A stretch of 64,000 nucleotides of DNA from an uncultured Gemmatimonadales bacterium. Lineage in GTDB: Bacteria; Gemmatimonadota; Gemmatimonadetes; Gemmatimonadales; GWC2-71-9. The position numbers and the translations under genes are program-made. Numbering within the stretch: the first letter of the stretch is position 1; every line of letters starts with the position of its first letter. Shown here in pieces: positions 4,883 to 54,319 of the stretch. The stretch lies in the NCBI GenBank assembly GCA_963798915.1, contig CAWCVB010000002.1, positions 720,223 through 784,222 of the forward strand, given 5' to 3'. The notes under the pieces are model-generated. The model did no database searches and was not told the DNA's origin. It worked only from the letters and a program-made list of their open reading frames with translations.

Positions 4883-4975
4883 GGATCAGGGAGCGGGGGT
4901 CAGGGGCCAGGGGAACCCTCCGTTCCCAGTCCTTGACCCCGAGCCGCCAGCCCTGGTCCCTCACCCTTGGTCCAT
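4868..4975. repeat. Degenerate heptamer array with inverted arms between convergent genes
   Basis: G-rich arm (AGGGATC, GGGGGTC, AGGGGCC) followed by C-rich arm (TGACCCC, TGGTCCC); overlaps both stop codons. Confidence 0.7.
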
Positions 4976-7900
4976 CATCGTGACCTCGACCGGTTCCTGG
5001 TCCCGCAGGACCTCCCGCACCGCCAGGTGCGGCTGCCGGGCGAGCTGCCGTCGGCGCCAGAGCAGGTAGATCGCGGGAATGACCGCGAGGGTGAGCACGC
5101 TGGCGGTGAGCATGCCACCCACCATGGGCGAGGCGATCCGTCGCATGACGTCCGCCCCCGTTCCTGAACTCCAGAGGATCGGCGCCAGGCCGGCGATGAT
5201 GGCGGTGACCGTCATGACCACAGGGCGGAGCCGCTCCAGCGCGCCGTCCCGGACCGCCGCCACAACATCGGCTGGGCCCTGCATGCGCCCTTCCAGGCTG
5301 CGGCGGTGGAACGCCTCATCCAGGTAGATGAGCATCACGACGCCGGTCTCCGCCGCGACTCCGGCCAGCGCGATAAAGCCGACCCAGACTGCCACACTGG
5401 TGTTGTAGCCCAGCCCCCAGAGGAACCACACGCCGCCCACCAGCGCGAACGGCAGCGCCAGCATCACGATGAGCGCCTCGGGGACGCTCCTGAAGTTGAA
5501 ATAGAGAAGCAGGAAGATGATCCCGAGGGTGACGGGAACCACGGTGCGCATCTTGTGGGCGACCCGCTGCATGAACTCGTACTGCCCGCTCCAGACCAGC
5601 GTATATCCGCTGGGCAGCGTAAGCTGCGCGGGCCACCGCCTGCTGCGCATCGCGCACATAGCTGCCCACGTCGCGCTCGCCGTTGTCCACGAAGATCGTG
5701 GTCACCGGGAATGCGTTCTCGGTCTTGACCGCCATCGGTCCCTGGACGATGCGGACCGCGGCCACCTGGCCCAGCGGAATCTGCCGGCCGCCCATGGCGG
5801 GCACCACCACTTCCTTGAGCTTCTCGACGTTGTCCCGCAGCTCCCGGGGATAGCGCACGTTGACGGCATACCGCTCGCGCCCCTCAACGGTCATGGCGGC
5901 GGTGAGGCCGCCGACGGTGGCCATGATGGCGTTGTGGATATCACCCACGTTGAGTCCGTAGCGCGCCGCCTCGGTCCGGTCGACGTCGATGTCAACGTAA
6001 TAGCCGGACACGCCGCGTTCGGCAAAGGCGCTTCGGGTGCCGGGTACGCGCTGCATGATGCGCTCGACCCGCTCACCCAGCATCTGGAGCGTATCAAGGT
6101 CGGGACCGAAGATCTTGATGCCGACGGGGGTGCGGATGCCGGTGGCCAGCATGTCGATCCGTCCCTTGATGGGCATGGTCCAGGCGTTGGTCACGCCCGG
6201 CATCCGGGTGGCCCGGTCCATGGCAGCCACGATCCGCTCATAGGTGAGCCCGGGGCGCCATTCCGACTCGGGCTTCAGCGTCACGGTCGTCTCATACATG
6301 TCCAGCGGGGCAGGGTCAGTGGCCGTTGACGCGCGGCCCACCTTGCCCAGTACTCGTGTCGACTTCCGGGAACGATGCTAGCACGCTGTCCTGGTAGCGC
6401 ATGATGTCGCGTGCCTGCGCGATCGACACGCCGGGTACGGTCGTGGGCATGAAGAGGATCGTGCCCTCATGCAGCGGCGGCATGAACTCGCTGCCGAGGC
6501 GGCGCCACGGCAGAATCGTGAGCGCGAGCACGGCCACCGCTGACAGGATGACGGTCCACGGTCGTCGAAGCGCGAAGTCGATCACGGGCCGGTAGAGCCG
6601 CTGCAGGATGCGGTTGACCGGGTTCTCCCGCTCCGGGCGGATGTTTCCCCGGACCAGATATCCCATCAGCACGGGCACCAGCGTGATCGACAGCAACGCC
6701 GCTCCGGCCATCGCAAAGGTCTTGGTAAACGCCAGCGGCTTGAAGAGCCGGCCTTCCTGCTGCTCCAGGCTGAAGACCGGCAGGAAGCTGAAGGTGATGA
6801 TGAGCAGGGAAAAGAAGAGCGGCGGCCCCACCTGCTTGGCGCTCTCCAGCACGATCTCCCATCGCGACGTGCCCGGCTGCGCCCGCTCCAGGTGCTTGTG
6901 CATGTTCTCGATCATGACGATTGCCGCGTCCACCATGGCGCCGATGGCGATGGCGATGCCGCCCAGGCTCATGATGTTGGCATTCACCCCGATGGCGCGC
7001 ATCACCAGGAAGGAGATCAGGATGCCCAATGGCAGGGTGATGATCGCGACCAGCGCCGAGCGGAAATGCAGCAGGAAGAGCATGGCCACCGCGGCGACGA
7101 TCAGCGATTCTTCGATCAGCTTGTTCCGCAGGGTCTCGACCGCCCGGTGAATGAGGTCGCTGCGGTCGTAGGCGGTGACGAGGCGCACACCGGCCGGGAG
7201 GCCGCGTTGAATGTCGGCGAGACGCGCCTTGACTGCCTCGATGGTCTTGAGCGCATCGGAGCCGAAGCGCATGACCACAATGCCCGCCACCACCTCGCCC
7301 TTTCCATTGAGATCCGCCGCTCCCCGCCTCGGCGCTGGACCTACCTGAACATTGGCGACGTCGGCCACCCGGATGGGCGTCCCGTTCATGGTGGCGCCGA
7401 CGGTAACGTCCTCGATGTCGGCCACGCCCTGGAGATAGCCCAGGCCGCGGATCATGTACTCCCGTCCGCCCATTTCCAGCACGCGGGCGCCGATGTCCAC
7501 GTTGTGCGATCCGATTGCCTGTGCCACTCGTGTGACCGGGATGCTGAAGGCCCGCAGCCGCTCCGGGTCCACCTCCACTTGATACTGTTTCTGGAATCCG
7601 CCCAGGCTCGCCACTTCGGACACGCCGGGAACCGCGGTGAGCTGGTAACGGATGTACCAGTCCTGGAGCGTCCTGAGCTGCGCCAGGTCCAGACTGTCGG
7701 ACTCCAGCACGTACTCGAAGACCCAGCCCACGCCCGTGGCATCGGGACCCAGCGTCGGCTCCACCCCAGCGGGAAGGTTCTTCTGCACGCCATTCAGGTA
7801 CTCCAGCACCCGGCTGCGGGCCCAGTAGATGTCGGTGCCGTCCTCGAAGATCACGTACACAAGACTGAGCCCGAAGAACGAATAGCCCCGCACCACCCGC

Positions 7901-8136
7901 GCACCGGGCACCTTGAGCATCTCGGACGTGATGGGATAGGTGACCTGGTCCTCGACAATGCCCGGGGCCTGTTCAGCAAAGTCGGTCTGGATGATGACCT
8001 GGACGTCCGACAGGTCTGGAATGGCGTCGAGCGGGGTGCTGCGCATGGCCCATACACCGCCAGCGACCAGCGCGACGGTTGCCAGCAGGACCAGGAAGCG
8101 GTTCCGCAGCGACCAGGCAATGATGGCGTTAATCAT
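4961..8136 (-). CDS. cusA: CusA/CzcA heavy-metal RND efflux permease, interrupted by two +1 frameshifts (about 6355 and about 5631)
   Basis: LDAIPDLSDVQVIIQT, GPDATGVGWV, ANIMSLGGIAIAIGAMVDAAIV, TDPAPLDMYET, IKGRIDMLATGIRTPVGIK, GVAAETGVVM, GALERLRPVVMT spread over ORFs 6316..8136, 5316..6341 and 4961..5659. Confidence 0.92.
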
Positions 8137-9355
8137 GGGAATGTCCCGCCTCGGCGGATGACGGCGACGGATTCACATGCTGCATGCCCGGCATCGAGGC
8201 ACCGGTGGTACCCAGGCGCGATTCGGCGTCCACCAGGAAGTTGGCGGAGCCGACAATCATCTCTCCGTCCTGCAACCCGCTCAGGACCTGGACGCGCTCA
8301 CCCGCGCGGGCGCCGAGCACGATCTCGCGCGGCGAGAGCATGCCGCCCGAGTCGCGCACGAAGACCAGGTTCCGTTCACCGGTGGCGATCACGGCGGCCG
8401 TGGGCACCGAGAGGTACCGTTCGCTGAGGTCGGAGTCGAAGTAGATGGTGGCGAACATGCCCGGTTTGAGACGGAGGTCGCGGTTGGGCACCGTGACCCG
8501 CACCCGGTTGGTGCGGCTATGCACGTCCACCGTCGGATACACGAAGCTCACGCGTCCCATCACATGCTCGCCCGGGTAGGCCGACACCTCGATGTGCGCC
8601 TGGGTGCCGGTGCGAACGAACTTGAGGTCCTGCTCGAACATCTCGCCTTCCACCCAGACGTCGCGCAGGTCGGCGACGCGATAGAGCTTCTCGCCCGGCA
8701 TCACCCGCTGACCCAGCAGGACGTTCTTCTCCAGCACAATGCCATCGACCGGCGACACCAGCGCCAGCGTCTTGGTGACCTCGCCGGTCCGCTCCAACCG
8801 GGCGATCTGGCCCGGCGAGATATCCCACCATGCCAGCCGCCGCCGGGCGGATTCCAGCGTGGCCTGGGCGCCGATCCACGCCTCGCCGGCCGAGCTGTCC
8901 ACCGCCTGCGCCAGTCGCCGGGCCGTGAGGAACTCCTCCTGCGCGGCAACCAGGTCGGGACTATAGATCGAGAGCAGGGGCTGGCCCCGATGCACCGACT
9001 CGCCGGTGGTGTTGACGTCGAGTCGTTCGACATACCCGGTCACCTTGGGGGTGACATCGGCGACATTCTGCTCCGGCGCCAGAATTTCACCCACCGTGCG
9101 GATGGTTCTGGTGAGCGGTTCCCGCCCGACCCGGGTATAAGTCACGCCCAGCGCCTGCTCCTGCTGCGCTGTCAGATGCACCGGCTGGCGGACGGCGGCA
9201 CCCGTGCTGTCCATGGCACCCTGTGTCCCTCCCGCCTGCATTCGTGCATGCTCGTCGGGGGTCATCCCCGTCATGGTCGATCCTGGTTCGGGAGACTTGC
9301 CGCACCCGGTGATGCCCAGGGCCACGATCAGCGCCGCGCTCAGCATCGTTCTCAT
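8129..9355 (-). CDS. cusB: CusB-type RND periplasmic adaptor (lipoprotein)
   Basis: Lipobox ITGC; Met/His-rich termini; IYSPDLVAAQEEFL, SPVDGIV, LKPGMFA, ANFLVDAES motifs; upstream of cusA. Confidence 0.9.
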   Translation of the reverse strand: MRTMLSAALIVALGITGCGKSPEPGSTMTGMTPDEHARMQAGGTQGAMDSTGAAVRQPVHLTAQQEQALGVTYTRVGREPLTRTIRTVGEILAPEQNVADVTPKVTGYVERLDVNTTGESVHRGQPLLSIYSPDLVAAQEEFLTARRLAQAVDSSAGEAWIGAQATLESARRRLAWWDISPGQIARLERTGEVTKTLALVSPVDGIVLEKNVLLGQRVMPGEKLYRVADLRDVWVEGEMFEQDLKFVRTGTQAHIEVSAYPGEHVMGRVSFVYPTVDVHSRTNRVRVTVPNRDLRLKPGMFATIYFDSDLSERYLSVPTAAVIATGERNLVFVRDSGGMLSPREIVLGARAGERVQVLSGLQDGEMIVGSANFLVDAESRLGTTGASMPGMQHVNPSPSSAEAGHSHD

Positions 9356-10636
9356 CAGTCCAGTTCCTCCGTACCCAGCAAGGCGCCGATGCGTGCCCTG
9401 GCCTGCTGCCAGGATGCTGCGAGGCGCAACACATCGATCTCGTATTGATTCACGGTCATTTCATTCTGGATCAGCGTCTGGAAATCGACCCGGCCGACCC
9501 GGTACGCGGAGAGCGCCGACTCCACCGCGGCGCGCGCCTGGGGCAGGATCGCCGTTCGGTACAGATCGGCCAGCTGCCGTGCCTGTTCGGCCTCGGCGCG
9601 TTGCTCGGTCAATTGAGCCCAGGTCTCGTTGTAGAGATTCTGTGCGTTCGCCTCCGCCCGGGCCTGGGTGGCGGCCATCTCCCGACGCAGGGGGAGCTGG
9701 CGCTTGCCGGCCCAGATGGGAAGACTCACGCCCAGCGCGATACTGACCATGTCATCGAATTGGGGTCGCTGGCCGTAGCCCACGGAGAGCATCAGATCGG
9801 GGTAGAGAGTTCGGCGTGCCGCACGGTAGCCGGCGTGCGCGGCCTGCACTCGTTCGGAGGCGGCCGCCAGTGCGGGCCGGTGGCGCAGGGCGACCGCAAT
9901 GAGGGAGTCCGCTGATGGCAGCAGGTCTCCTGGCGCTGGAAGGACCAATGCACCGACTGGCTCGGTTGCGTTCCGGCCCAGCAGCGCGTTGAACCGGGCC
10001 GCCGTCGCCTCACGCTGCTGCTCGAGCGTGGCGATGTCGCCACTCATCCGGGCGATGGCCACCTGGGCCTGCAGTACGTCCTGCTGCAGGCCCTCGCCGC
10101 TCGCGTATCGACTCTGGGAGACCCGGAAGAAATCGCGCAGCAGATCCCGGGTCCGATTCATCACCGTGAGTGCCCGGTCCATGGAAGCCAGTGCATAGTA
10201 GGAGACGGTGACCTGGGCGGTGAGCTGCAGGTCGGCCTCATCGGCCTCCAGCGCCCCGGCGCGCGAGAGATGCACCGATTGGTCCCGCTCCAGGCCGAGC
10301 TTGCCCGGCCAGGGCAGCATCTGGGTCACGGTCGCCTGATTCATGGTCATCGCCTCGCCGGTGCCAAATCCGGTTATCGGGCGGTTCATGAGTCCCAAGG
10401 TGAGCCGCGGGTCTGGAAGGACCCCCATGCGGGACGCCCGTTCCGCATCGGCCAGCGCCGTGCTGCGCGCGGCCTTGAGCGCCGGGTTCTGCTGGTGGGC
10501 GAGACGCACGGCGTCGTCCAGTCGCAGGGTGTCACCGGCCGAGCATCTGCGCAGCAAGTCGAGCCGGGCTCAGCAGGGCGATCGTGAACACCAGGCCCAG
10601 AGACAGCGGGCCGGTGCATAGTCTTGGCAGGGACAT
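9355..10636 (-). CDS. TolC/CusC-family outer-membrane efflux protein, frameshift about 10545 just after the signal peptide
   Basis: ATG 10636 with GAGGAG RBS gives signal peptide MSLPRLCTGPLSLGLVFTIALLSPARLAAQ; body (LPDPRL, QMLPWPGKL, SLPIW, AYRVGRVDF) is in ORF 9355..10557; stop overlaps cusB start. Confidence 0.85.
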
Positions 10637-10723
10637 ACCTCTCCTCGTCCGCGAGCGATGATTGAGCGTAGGACCCGGCGCGCCGACCTTCGACGCGACG
10701 GGACACACATCAACTGGGAGAGG

Positions 10724-11056
10724 TCAGGCTTGGGGAGGCGGTGGGAGCGGTGCGGCGACGTCGGCCGGGAGGAGTCGGTCGGTATCCTCGACCGAGATAC
10801 GATGCACAGGCATGGCAAACAACACGGTCAGCACTGATGGCAGCCCAGCCGCCGAAGGCAGGTTGCATGGGGTCGGCATGGAGCATTCGGTCGAGGATGG
10901 CGCGCTTGGCATCGTTGGCATGTGACCACGTGCTGTCGCCGCCTGGTGGCAGGCAGCGGCGGGCGCCATGCGGCACAGCGCCGGGGTGGCGACTGAGAAC
11001 AGCTGCGCCACGAACAACAGAGCTGTCAGCATCCGAGCAATCAGCACGAGCCGCAC
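10724..11056 (-). CDS. Small exported Cys/His/Met-rich leader protein with poly-Pro C-terminus (DUF2946/CruR-like candidate)
   Basis: N-terminal hydrophobic segment, CRMAPAAACHQ...HMPTMP...CSMPTPC, ends APLPPPPQA; first gene of the efflux operon. Confidence 0.6.
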   Translation of the reverse strand: MRLVLIARMLTALLFVAQLFSVATPALCRMAPAAACHQAATARGHMPTMPSAPSSTECSMPTPCNLPSAAGLPSVLTVLFAMPVHRISVEDTDRLLPADVAAPLPPPPQA

Positions 11057-13090: not shown

Positions 13091-13777
13091 GTGACCGCCT
13101 CCGGTCCGGCTGATGCCTATACCAGGTCGGTCGAGGATTATCTCAAGGCCGTCTACCGGCTGTCATCCGACGAGCGCGCCGCATCCACCACCGAAATTGC
13201 CCAGCGGCTGGCGCTGTCGCCCGCGTCGGTCAGCGCCATGATCAAGCGCCTGGCCGAACAGGGCCTGGTGGAACATGAGCGCTATCGCGGAGTGCGCCTC
13301 ACGTCCGAGGGGCGGCGCGCCGCGCTGCGCATTGTCCGCCGCCACCGGCTGGTTGAGACCTATCTGGTCGAGTTTCTCGGGTATGACTGGGACAACGTCC
13401 ACGCCGAGGCGGAAAAGCTGGAGCATGCCATGTCGGATGCGCTGGTGGAGCGGATGGCTGCGGCGCTCGGGCATCCTTCGTTTGACCCGCATGGCGATCC
13501 GATTCCCGCCGCCGACGGCAGCGTGTCCGATGTCAAGGCCACGCCGCTCACCGGAATGGCGCCCGGCGCCTGCGGGGTGCTTGCCCGGGTGGAGCTGGGT
13601 GACTCCGAGCGGCTTCGCTACCTGGGCTCGCTGGGGATCCGGCCGGGGCTCCGGTTCACCGTGCTGGACCGCGCCCCCTTCGACGGGCCCGTGACGATCG
13701 AGACATCGTCGGGCGCCAAGGTGCTGGGCTACGCGATCGCCACTGGATTGCTGTGCATGCCCGAGGCATCGAGATGA
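13091..13777 (+). CDS. mntR: DtxR/MntR family Mn-dependent repressor with FeoA domain
   Basis: [38 protein letters not shown]; upstream of mntH. Confidence 0.9.
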
Positions 13778-15132
13778 GCGCGGCATCGCATCCGCCGGTG
13801 GAGGCGCACGTCGGCTGGCGGCGACCGCGCAAGATGCCCAGCCTGCCGGAATCGTATCGCACCATCAAGGTTCCGGGCGGCCCCGGGTTCTGGCGCAAGG
13901 CGCTGGCCTTTGCCGGGCCGGGCTATCTGGTGGCCGTGGGGTATATGGACCCTGGGAACTGGGCCAGCGACCTTGCCGGTGGGGCCCAGTTCGGGTACAC
14001 GCTGCTGAGCGTCATCCTGCTCTCCAACCTGATGGCCATGCTGCTGCAGGGACTCGCCGTTCGTCTGGGCATTGGCACGGGGCGGGACCTGGCCCAGGCC
14101 TGCCGGGACCATTATCCGGTTCCGGTCGCCATGGGGCTGTGGGTGCTCTGCGAAATTGCCATCGCGGCGTGCGACCTGGCCGAGGTGATCGGCAGCGCCA
14201 TTGCGCTCAATCTGCTGTTCGGCATTCCCCTGCTGTGGGGCGTGTGCCTCACGGCGCTCGACGTACTGATCATCCTCTTTCTGCACCAGCGCGGCTTCCG
14301 CTGGCTCGAGGCGATCGTGATCGGCTTGATTGCGGTCGTCGGTGCCTGCTTCGCGACCGAGCTGTTTCTGTCCCGGCCCGACGCAGGCGAGGTGGCGCGC
14401 GGACTGCTTCCGACCACGCAGATTCTCTCCAACCCGATGATGCTCTACATCGCCATCGCCATTCTCGGCGCGACGGTGATGCCCCACAACCTGTACCTGC
14501 ATTCGTCCATCGTGCAGACCCGGCAGTTCGGCGACGACCTCGAGTCCCGGCGGGAAGCGATCCGTTTTTCGACCTTCGATTCGACGGTTGCGCTGCTGTT
14601 CGCCTTCTTCATCAACGGCGCCATCCTCATCCTGAGTGCCGCGACCTTCCACTTCTCCGGCTTCAGCGGCGTCGCCGACATCGCGGACGCGCACCGACTG
14701 CTGGCGCCCCTCCTGGGCACCACGGCCGCAAGCGTGCTGTTTGCGGTCGCGCTTCTGGCATCAGGGCAGAACTCCACCATCACCGGCACGCTGGCGGGCC
14801 AGATCGTGATGGAGGGTTTTCTCAACCTCAGGCTGGCGCCCTGGCTGCGCCGGCTGGTCACCCGCGGCATCGCCATCGTGCCGGCCATCATCGTGACGGC
14901 GATCTACGGCGTCAGGGGTACCGTGGCCCTGCTCATCCTCAGCCAGGTCATCCTGTCGTTGCAGCTCTCGTTCGCGGTGATTCCGCTGGTGCAGTTCACC
15001 GGCGACAAGGCCAAGATGGGCCCGCTGGTGATCCGGCCCATCACCAAGGTCGCGGCATGGAGTGTGGCGGGTGTGATTCTGAGTCTCAATGCCTGGCTGC
15101 TGGTGAGCACCTTCCGGGAGTGGCTCTCCTGA
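13774..15132 (+). CDS. mntH: Nramp divalent metal (Mn2+) transporter
   Basis: [10 protein letters not shown] and [13 protein letters not shown]ramp signatures; ATGA overlap with mntR. Confidence 0.96.
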
Positions 15133-53176: not shown

Positions 53177-54319
53177 ATGCGGTTGTCGTACTGGATCTCG
53201 GTTGCGCTTACGCTGGCCCCCGCCGCGACGTCCGCCCAGGCGGCCGCTGCAGGTCAGGTGCGGACCTATTACATCGCCGCCGACGAGGTGGCCTGGAACT
53301 ACGCGCCGCAAGGCACGAACGTGATCGCCGGGCGGCCGTTTGCCGGCATCGAGAATCTCTGGACTCAGCGTGGCCCGACCCAGATCGGCAGCACCTACAA
53401 GAAGGCGCTCTACCGCGAGTACACTGACAGCACTTTCCGCACGCTCAAGCCCCGGCCGGCCGACCAGCAATACCTTGGCCTGCTGGGTCCCGTCATTCGC
53501 GCCGAAGTCGGCGACACCATCAAGGTGGTCTTCCGCAACAACGCCACCCATCCCTACAGCGTCCATCCGCACGGCGTCATCTACGCCAAGAGCTCGGAGG
53601 GGTCGCCCTACAGCGATGGCACGGGCGGGACTGACAAGGCCGATGATGGCGTGATGCCCGGCGCCACTTATACCTATGTCTGGCCAGTGACGGAACGTGC
53701 CGGCCCCGTTCCAGGCGAGGGCAGCTCCGCCCTCTGGATGTACCACTCGCATGTGGACGAGGGGAAGGACGTGAACGGCGGGTTGATCGGGCCGCTCATC
53801 GTCACCGCACGGGGCATGGCGCGACTCGATGGCTCACCCAAGGATGTTGATCAGGAGATCGTCACGACCTTCGCCGAGCTGGACGAAAATCTCAGCTGGT
53901 ACATCGACGACAACATCCAGCAGTACGCCATGGAGCCTGCCAAGGTGCAGAAGCCCCAAGGCCCGACCTTCATCGATCCCTTTGGCATCACCAACCTCAA
54001 GGAGTCGATCAACGGGTTCATCTACGGCAACGGCCCCATGCCGGCCATGCACGTTGGCGACCGGGTGCGCTGGTACGTCATGTCCACCACCAATTTCGAG
54101 CTGCATGCACCGCACTGGCACGGCAACGTGGTGACGGCCCAGCACATGAAGACTGACGTCCTGAACCTGGGCACGATGGGCATGATCATCGCCGACATGG
54201 TGCCTGATAATCCGGGCATCTGGCTCTTCCACTGCCACATCGAGCCGCACAACACCGGCGGTATGCTGATGCGGTTCGAGGTGACGCCCGCCCTGGCCGT
54301 GGGACGCGCAGGGAGCTGA
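53177..54319 (+). CDS. Secreted two-domain multicopper oxidase, ceruloplasmin/hephaestin-like
   Basis: RTYYIAADEVAWNYAP, GLLGPVIRAEVGD, SVHPHG, WMYHSH, HAPHWHG, WLFHCHIEPHNTGGM. Confidence 0.92.
   Translation: MRLSYWISVALTLAPAATSAQAAAAGQVRTYYIAADEVAWNYAPQGTNVIAGRPFAGIENLWTQRGPTQIGSTYKKALYREYTDSTFRTLKPRPADQQYLGLLGPVIRAEVGDTIKVVFRNNATHPYSVHPHGVIYAKSSEGSPYSDGTGGTDKADDGVMPGATYTYVWPVTERAGPVPGEGSSALWMYHSHVDEGKDVNGGLIGPLIVTARGMARLDGSPKDVDQEIVTTFAELDENLSWYIDDNIQQYAMEPAKVQKPQGPTFIDPFGITNLKESINGFIYGNGPMPAMHVGDRVRWYVMSTTNFELHAPHWHGNVVTAQHMKTDVLNLGTMGMIIADMVPDNPGIWLFHCHIEPHNTGGMLMRFEVTPALAVGRAGS

Follow-up and report, generated by a model that had tools for sequence, protein, structure and literature searches.

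The stretch of DNA examined here, hereafter the window, is 64,000 nt long and comes from an uncultured Gemmatimonadales bacterium (contig CAWCVB010000002.1). On its minus strand, an upstream open reading frame (uORF) precedes a tolC-cusB-cusA operon for copper/silver efflux. A sequence-only reading of this DNA had proposed the uORF as a metal-sensing ribosome-stalling leader, and our analysis indicates that it is probably the leader of this operon, working like CutF of Rhodobacter capsulatus. The locus contains the following features, given in the direction of transcription.

10724..11056, minus strand: leader uORF for a CutF-like small Cys/His/Met-rich peptide, 110 codons from the first GTG (11056), with relatives upstream of tolC.
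10980..11047, minus strand: N-terminal basic and hydrophobic segment (MLIARMLTALLFVAQLFSVATP...), presumed from reading by eye to be a Sec signal peptide.
10865..10885, minus strand: C58-x5-C64 motif (CSMPTPC), presumed to be the metal-binding site.
10733..10744, minus strand: the four codons of P105-P108, with Gln, Ala, and the stop after them; the PPP motif is presumed to be an EF-P-dependent pause site.
10717..10726, minus strand: stop codon TGA with CCUCUCC, complementary to the Shine-Dalgarno (SD) region and hence called the anti-SD, directly after it; the motif is kept after TAG, TGA, and TAA in relatives.
10666..10706, minus strand: central G+C-rich hairpin atop the anti-SD:SD helix in the minimum free energy (MFE) fold.
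10637..10644, minus strand: SD region of tolC (GGAGAGGU), paired with the anti-SD and abutting ATG 10636.
10532..10636, minus strand: start codon and signal-peptide frame of tolC, ended by an in-frame TGA (10534-10532) that results from a frameshift.
9355..10557, minus strand: mature TolC-family outer-membrane factor (OEP), in another frame than ATG 10636 and 76% identical to that of the closest relative, the locus L001.
8129..9355, minus strand: CusB-type periplasmic adaptor, intact, 86% identical to that of L001.
4961..8136, minus strand: CusA-type pump of the heavy-metal efflux branch of the resistance-nodulation-division (RND) family, in three frames (8136-6316, 6341-5316, and 5659-4961), that is, with two frameshifts.

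The 110-aa frame rich in Cys, His, and Met and ending in APLPPPPQA, from which the sequence-only reading set out, lies where that reading had placed it; it contains four Cys, three His, and six Met residues and closes with TGA at 10726-10724. Its start is more likely GTG 11047 than GTG 11056, because GTG 11047 is preceded by GGAG at a distance of 8 nt and lines up with the start in the closest relative; the predicted peptide then has 107 aa. The GAGGA before GTG 11056 directly abuts that codon. The peptide is shorter than 150 aa and has a PP motif within its last 15 residues, as the rule-based definition of CutF-like proteins asks (PMC8456105; PMC9973294); the exact CxxC and RAPP motifs are absent, as had been noted. 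It matches no Pfam family at E up to 10, DUF2946 (PF11162) included, and no NCBIfam model; neither the CopL_fam nor the CzcI model matches it. The comparison with DUF2946 that had been proposed as a check was therefore negative for the window peptide, and the proposed distinct variant family is best seen as a CutF-like branch. No second CutF-like leader was found in the window, and its sole other frame ending in PPPxx-stop lies inside another gene.

The genes downstream of the uORF carry the domain families OEP, HlyD_D23, and ACR_tran, so that the CusCBA-type layout claimed before, with an OEP, a CusB-like adaptor, and a CusA-like pump in one operon, is present, but with cusA in three pieces. 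The best solved relative of the pump is E. coli CusA with 706 bits, compared with 347 bits for the CzcA-like ZneA. The stretch AIGAMVDAAIVMIEN in transmembrane segment 4 fits what we take to be the Cu/Ag-type signature described by Nies in 2003. By sequence, the pump is of the CusA type, and hence the context is copper. The SD was said to abut the tolC AUG: ATG 10636 does stand at the SD and opens a signal-peptide-like sequence, but its frame is broken and the mature protein is read in a different one. In the remaining loci, the tolC signal peptide is in frame with mature TolC.

A search with tolC yielded 80 loci, all titled as metagenome-assembled genomes (MAGs) of Gemmatimonadota and 53-76% identical. 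Besides the window, 51 of the 80 loci have a frame with a terminal Pro run at less than 450 nt upstream of tolC, and the related operons thereby keep the uORF in 51 of the 75 loci that have upstream sequence. This count leaves out five frames (the second ones in L033 and L046, the first in L074, and those in L062 and L065), which are alternative readings of the same DNA or do not have the other features. The 80 loci hold 7002 frames that are 60 codons or longer; 57 of these end in PPPxx-stop, 46 at the leader site and 11 elsewhere. The family was detected only via the tolC neighbourhood. With the window peptide as the single query, a word-indexed search found no relative and exhaustive phmmer only six (E up to 0.001); a profile search with the alignment of 50 peptides gave 10 matches, none with Pfam domains or useful names.

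This alignment holds the peptides of the window and of 49 loci, without L008 (truncated by the contig end) and L018 (frameshifted). The mean column identity is 24%. Against this background, C58 is invariant in 50 of 50 peptides, as are P107 and P108, and C64 and P106 are kept in at least 90%; the conservation of the Cys residues and of the terminal PPP, which the sequence-only reading had asked about, is thus seen in one invariant and one nearly invariant Cys and in a nearly invariant PPP. The C-x5-C spacing occurs in 44 of the 49 relatives, and in 46 of them exactly two residues separate the PPP from the stop. The position after the PPP holds R, K, Q, E, or N, and the last position holds mostly A ([AVSIPT]). 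Each of the three Pro codons is fixed in its first two positions but is found with any of the four bases in the third, so that selection acts on the amino acids rather than on the RNA. The relatives are 103-136 aa long (median 113). Counted from the second Cys, the first Pro of the PPP comes 40-43 residues later (median 42) in all 47 sequences that have this Cys; the sequence between the Cys motif and the PPP drifts, and its length is kept. By eye, all aligned members have a basic and then hydrophobic N-terminus, which a crude hydrophobicity rule recognized in 44 of 52. In some relatives, an additional CxxC such as CAEC or CAHC immediately precedes the conserved Cys pair, and no RAPP was seen by eye in the 50 aligned peptides.

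Directly after the uORF stop codon, ACCUCUCC is the exact complement of GGAGAGGU beside the tolC AUG. The anti-SD ACCTCTCC at 10724-10717, which comprises the last base of the stop codon and seven more, is the exact reverse complement of GGAGAGGT at 10644-10637, just as the sequence-only reading had claimed. The CCUCUCC:GGAGAGG pairing closes the spacer of about 87 nt into one long stem-loop. When folded, a 111-nt stretch of the window gives an MFE structure of -44.5 kcal/mol (z = -2.24) in which the SD is paired to the stop-codon region, and 6 of 200 shuffles fold equally well or better. A perfect complement of at least 8 nt between the first 16 and the last 25 nt of the spacer arises in 8 of 2000 dinucleotide shuffles. 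In the window alone, the complementarity is correct and mildly unusual.

In the relatives, the spacer between the uORF and the tolC ATG has a median of 89 nt (87 nt in the window) and measures 78-100 nt in 43 of 51. Most loci show CCUCUCC or a variant after the stop and GGAGAGG or the matching variant at the tolC SD. The co-varying pairs include the following.

After the stop CCUCUCAA, at the SD UUGAGAGG.
After the stop CCUCGC, at the SD GCGAGG.
After the stop UCUCUCGG, at the SD CCGAGAGG.
After the stop CUUCCUAC, at the SD GUAGGAAG.
After the stop GCCGCUUAGUCG, at the SD CGACUAAGAGGC.

The helix was tested on a MAFFT alignment of 40 of the 51 sequences, chosen by spacer length, with an 11-pair helix that we named ourselves. 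In this helix, 78.0% of the cells are paired, compared with 71.2 ± 1.0% in shuffles, none of which (0 of 500) reaches 78.0%; slid registers are 40-55% paired. Both sides change in 9 of the 11 pairs (36 cells), and such compensatory changes are what the sequence-only reading had proposed to look for. Duplexes of cognate stop and SD regions have a mean of -17.8 kcal/mol, a value that none of 10000 permutations (-15.1 ± 0.41 kcal/mol) attains. When whole spacers are folded, at least five anti-SD:SD pairs appear in the MFE structure of 43 of 51, and hairpins are seen by eye at the same place as the central one of the window. A covariance model run on 886,892 bases gave 45 matches at E up to 1, all at the uORF-tolC junction and none elsewhere in the window or the loci; 41 have E < 0.1, the four weakest lie at E 0.14-0.98, and 40 are its own training sequences. 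Rfam offered no family for this RNA, only one sub-threshold small-RNA match of 15 bits against a gathering score of 153. The result named beforehand as refuting the sequence-only reading, homologous operons that lack the uORF or the pairing, is therefore not what the relatives show.

Several features around the leader stop are recorded here as side observations. The 51 distinct leader sequences end in TAG (30), TGA (17), or TAA (4). TAG, the commonest leader stop, is a minority (206 of 726) in those frames of the same loci that have 300 codons or more, and the G of the leader TAG often pairs with the nucleotide that follows the SD (column pair 18-130). In the first 30 nt after the leader stop (for example L004:5788-5820 and window 10695-10726), an out-of-frame stop is present in the +2 frame in 28 of 51 sequences, compared with 9.4 ± 2.6 when shuffled, and in the +1 frame in 18 of 51, compared with 9.2 ± 2.7. 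Many of these stops fall in a conserved GUAGUG(U/C)GCCC box; they could be a guard against slippage on the Pro codons or a by-product of this box. In two loci, another ORF stands between the leader and tolC. At L003:5246-5932, a leader ending in PPTPPPNS is followed by a 100-aa hydrophobic ORF, not directly by tolC, and its stop region pairs with the SD of that ORF. At L013:3815-3990, the leader ends in PPPESHR, with four residues after the PPP, and the paired SD precedes an 11-codon mini-ORF whose stop overlaps the tolC ATG (ATGA).

Two-component genes lie upstream of tolC at 3 of the 51 loci with the uORF versus 14 of the 24 without it (Fisher p = 1.4e-6), a comparison somewhat weakened by unequal flank lengths between the loci. 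The absence of CusRS or CueR genes near the operon, stated in the sequence-only reading, holds: the single histidine kinase of the window is a PAS hybrid kinase (45-2156), and none of the 103 window ORFs scanned has a MerR-family match. The genes that diverge from the uORF differ between loci when compared by eye, so no conserved trans regulator travels with the module. No cusF gene is present in the window operon. A scan for promoters and terminators found nothing, with no intrinsic-terminator-like site.

The surroundings of the leader at the different loci are also noted on their own account. At loci without the uORF (for example L011, L012, L016, L027, L034, L047, and L049), other copper genes lie upstream of the tolC paralogues, coding for HMA-domain and YHS-domain proteins, cupredoxin, P-type ATPase, and CopB, often together with two-component systems. 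Within 60 nt upstream of the uORF start, an SD-like motif is found in 5 of 51 sources, namely four relatives and the window; L001 and L017 are among those that have it. Many relatives show a -10-like TAnnnT box 9-16 nt before the uORF ATG (for example L010:5455-5470 and L033:5456-5471), which suggests leaderless or very short-leader uORF transcripts in many of them. Elsewhere in the window, on the plus strand, a two-domain multicopper-oxidase-like gene (53177-54316) has no CutF-like leader before it, and a gene for a DtxR-family repressor with a FeoA domain adjoins an Nramp transporter (13091-15129).

The sequence-only reading took CruR and SecM as models, but the closest known system is CutF-CutO, which it did not name. 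CutF of R. capsulatus is a protein of 118 aa with a Sec signal peptide, a C69xxxC73 motif, and the C-terminus P109EPEGPPPRL118 (PMC8456105). A stem-loop between cutF and cutO shields the cutO SD (PMC9973294), and Cu-induced synthesis of CutO needs the Cys motif, signal peptide, and Pro motif of CutF as well as this stem-loop (PMC9973294; bioRxiv 10.1101/2025.02.05.636593). The PPP motif works through EF-P (bioRxiv 10.1101/2025.02.05.636593); CutF is degraded after export and acts in cis only (PMC9973294). The leader described here resembles CutF in its small size (110 aa, family median 113), in its presumed signal-type N-terminal segment, in the PPP followed by two residues and the stop (PPPRL in CutF), in the short spacer with a predicted stem-loop shielding the SD of the next gene, and in the copper context. 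The Cys pair likewise stands about 41 residues before the PPP: from C73 to P114 of CutF, we count 41 residues in the sequence given in PMC8456105, within the 40-43 of the leader family. In contrast, the Cys motif here is C-x5-C instead of CxxxC, the target is tolC-cusBA instead of a multicopper oxidase, the phylum is Gemmatimonadota, the leader has no Pfam DUF2946 match, and the anti-SD begins directly at the stop codon.

A survey by the same group lists 5,334 CutF-like proteins, whose commonest downstream neighbour is an RND outer-membrane efflux protein and which come mainly from three phyla, the others being minor (PMC9973294). The string 'Gemmatimonad' is absent from the main text and three small supplementary files of this paper, the protein list in File S1 being outside this check. 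Among the papers listed, and judged by titles and the starts of abstracts, we found none on CutF in Gemmatimonadota, and the literature search gave nothing that joins Gemmatimonadetes, copper, and ribosome stalling. As judged from the features above, the leader is a member of the already described CutF-like nascent-chain copper sensors and not a new kind of system, and its phylum and sequence family go unrecognised by the current models. Other known systems share part of this design. In SecM-SecA, MifM-YidC2, and VemP-SecDF2, the arrest of an exported leader near its C-terminus opens an SD-hiding stem-loop, but these leaders sense export activity instead of metal, have other arrest motifs, and precede genes of the protein-export machinery, whereas the genes downstream of the window leader are not Sec or YidC components. 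CusRS/CopRS control the same kind of Cu/Ag RND pump (cusCFBA) in response to periplasmic metal, but transcriptionally and in trans. CopL of Xanthomonas and Stenotrophomonas and CzcI of Cupriavidus are, like the leader, small Cys/His-rich proteins encoded upstream of copper or czc resistance genes, and both are placed among the CutF-like clusters (PMC9973294). In ESM Atlas, the nearest named clusters are DUF2946, DUF6660, and CzcI/DUF2946, with scores of 0.94-0.95, which is a lead only.

By analogy with CutF, the leader peptide would be exported during its synthesis. With the ribosome at the Pro codons, the Cys motif would lie about 42 residues behind the peptidyl-transferase centre and so at the outer mouth of the SecY channel. 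If Cu(I) or Ag(I) bound to the motif there, the pause at the PPP or at termination would be prolonged, and the paused ribosome, with its front edge at the base of the helix, would hold the anti-SD unpaired. The freed SD would permit initiation on tolC and, via the overlapping genes, on cusB and cusA. Without metal, the leader would be finished fast, the helix would re-form, and the pump would stay low.

A ribosome covers approximately 15-16 nt downstream of the first P-site base. With this footprint, a ribosome that holds P107 in its P site extends as far as 10723, where CCUCUCC begins; one codon further on, with P108 in that site, it covers CCUC, and at the stop codon the whole anti-SD. The earlier proposal that a ribosome on the prolines masks the anti-SD holds for the edge or the first bases; from the stop codon, a ribosome covers all of the anti-SD, and the pause that matters may be one on the last Pro codon or during termination. 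The fixed spacing of PPP, two codons, stop, and anti-SD fits a ruler of this kind.

The same geometry would also serve plain translational coupling, the main competing explanation, which we consider unlikely. Here the uORF would encode a functional metal-binding protein of the periplasm, for instance a chaperone or pump accessory like CusF or CzcI; the helix would do no more than couple the translation of tolC to that of the first gene, and the PPP would have its role in the mature protein instead of in a regulated pause. Any terminating ribosome would cover the whole anti-SD with no stall needed, and the operon has no cusF gene. Among the nearest ESM Atlas clusters, one with a score of 0.94 has Pfam CzcI in 20% of its members and DUF2946 in 12% (again a lead only), and CzcI-type proteins precede czcCBA although they have no Pro motif (PMC9973294). 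However, the spacer from Cys to PPP is fixed in length and drifts in sequence, which fits a ruler better than a folded domain, and the PPP is set two residues before the stop in nearly all relatives. The scarcity of adjacent two-component systems at uORF loci would be expected if the leader itself regulates, and CutF, which is built in the same way, is broken down once exported and works in cis alone (PMC9973294).

The broken frames of the window raise a different explanation, which concerns this genome and not the family: the operon may be a pseudogene here, with the leader kept only by recent descent. We regard such a relic as improbable. Three frameshifts do fall within the 5.7 kb of tolC-cusA, and the other long genes of the window are full-length by Pfam coverage, so that sequence errors would have to be unevenly spread. 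But the CusA pieces keep 90-94% identity to the protein of L001, and CusB keeps 86%, so any decay would be very recent, and both cusA breaks consist of one extra base in the window when aligned to L001 and could be local assembly errors. Broken frames also occur in two related loci from long-contig MAGs, L017 (tolC) and L018 (uORF). The window operon may be dead through recent pseudogenisation or may be locally misassembled; the switch itself looks intact.

CruR (Bp2923, a DUF2946 protein of Bordetella pertussis) also belongs to this broad class as the first gene of a copper-related operon, encoding a small peptide with a Cys motif and a C-terminal Pro-containing arrest motif; its CXXC detects Cu while the peptide is still nascent, and Cu lifts the arrest at RAPP, leading to Rho-dependent termination (PMC9426467). 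Unlike what we propose for the leader here, Cu represses in CruR, the signal peptide is dispensable, EF-P is not involved, and the target is a TonB-dependent importer. That the leader follows CruR-like logic, stalling without metal until metal relieves the stall and Rho or a re-formed helix shuts the operon, is very improbable despite this shared architecture, since the exporter genes downstream would make induction by metal the sensible direction, the C-terminus is PPP-x-x-stop as in CutF and not RAPP, the 87-nt spacer with its SD-shielding helix differs from the 162 nt of cruR (PMC9973294), and the scan found no terminator-like site.

The following points weigh against a CutF-like leader. 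DUF2946 matches 2 of 50 relatives (best E 0.0093), as does the NCBIfam model CopL_fam (best E 0.0015); with such few and weak matches, homology to CutF is unproven. The uORF is absent in 24 of the 75 loci with upstream sequence, and five further loci are cut by the contig end. RNAalifold gave no consensus structure on either the MAFFT or the model-fitted alignment, probably because the middle of the alignment is gappy, and the helix was tested as one of our own naming because RNAalifold predicted none. The operon of the window contains three frameshifts in 5.7 kb, one in tolC (10532-10572) and two in cusA (~6340 and ~5640). Full masking of the anti-SD is reached only at the last Pro or the stop codon, so that plain termination could open the helix without a regulated stall. 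For the Gemmatimonadota, we infer export, metal binding, stalling, and the direction of the response.

The CutF-like reading nevertheless agrees best with the invariant Cys, the nearly invariant PPP, and the covarying helix, and it would carry CutF-type control, in which periplasmic copper acts through an exported nascent peptide, over to an RND efflux pump and into a soil phylum that has received little study. Neither the covariation of the SD-shielding helix nor the strict Cys-PPP spacing of 40-43 residues is described in the parts of the published surveys consulted here. Pfam and NCBIfam models are blind to the leader family, and annotation consequently misses both the gene and the regulation of the pump. 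More tentatively, and with considerable doubt about the whole, the leader and its anti-SD helix may form a self-contained translational copper switch throughout the Gemmatimonadota that replaces CusRS-type control, perhaps on a leaderless or short-leader mRNA, with out-of-frame stops guarding against slippage on the Pro codons and with the ruler as a general geometric rule for nascent-chain metal sensors. If so, the agreement in ruler length without Pfam-level homology would reflect how far the outer SecY vestibule lies from the peptidyl-transferase centre, and the leader family would have arisen either as a very old branch or by independent invention. The near-exclusive pattern of leaders and two-component systems gives a testable statement on how copper efflux is controlled in this phylum.

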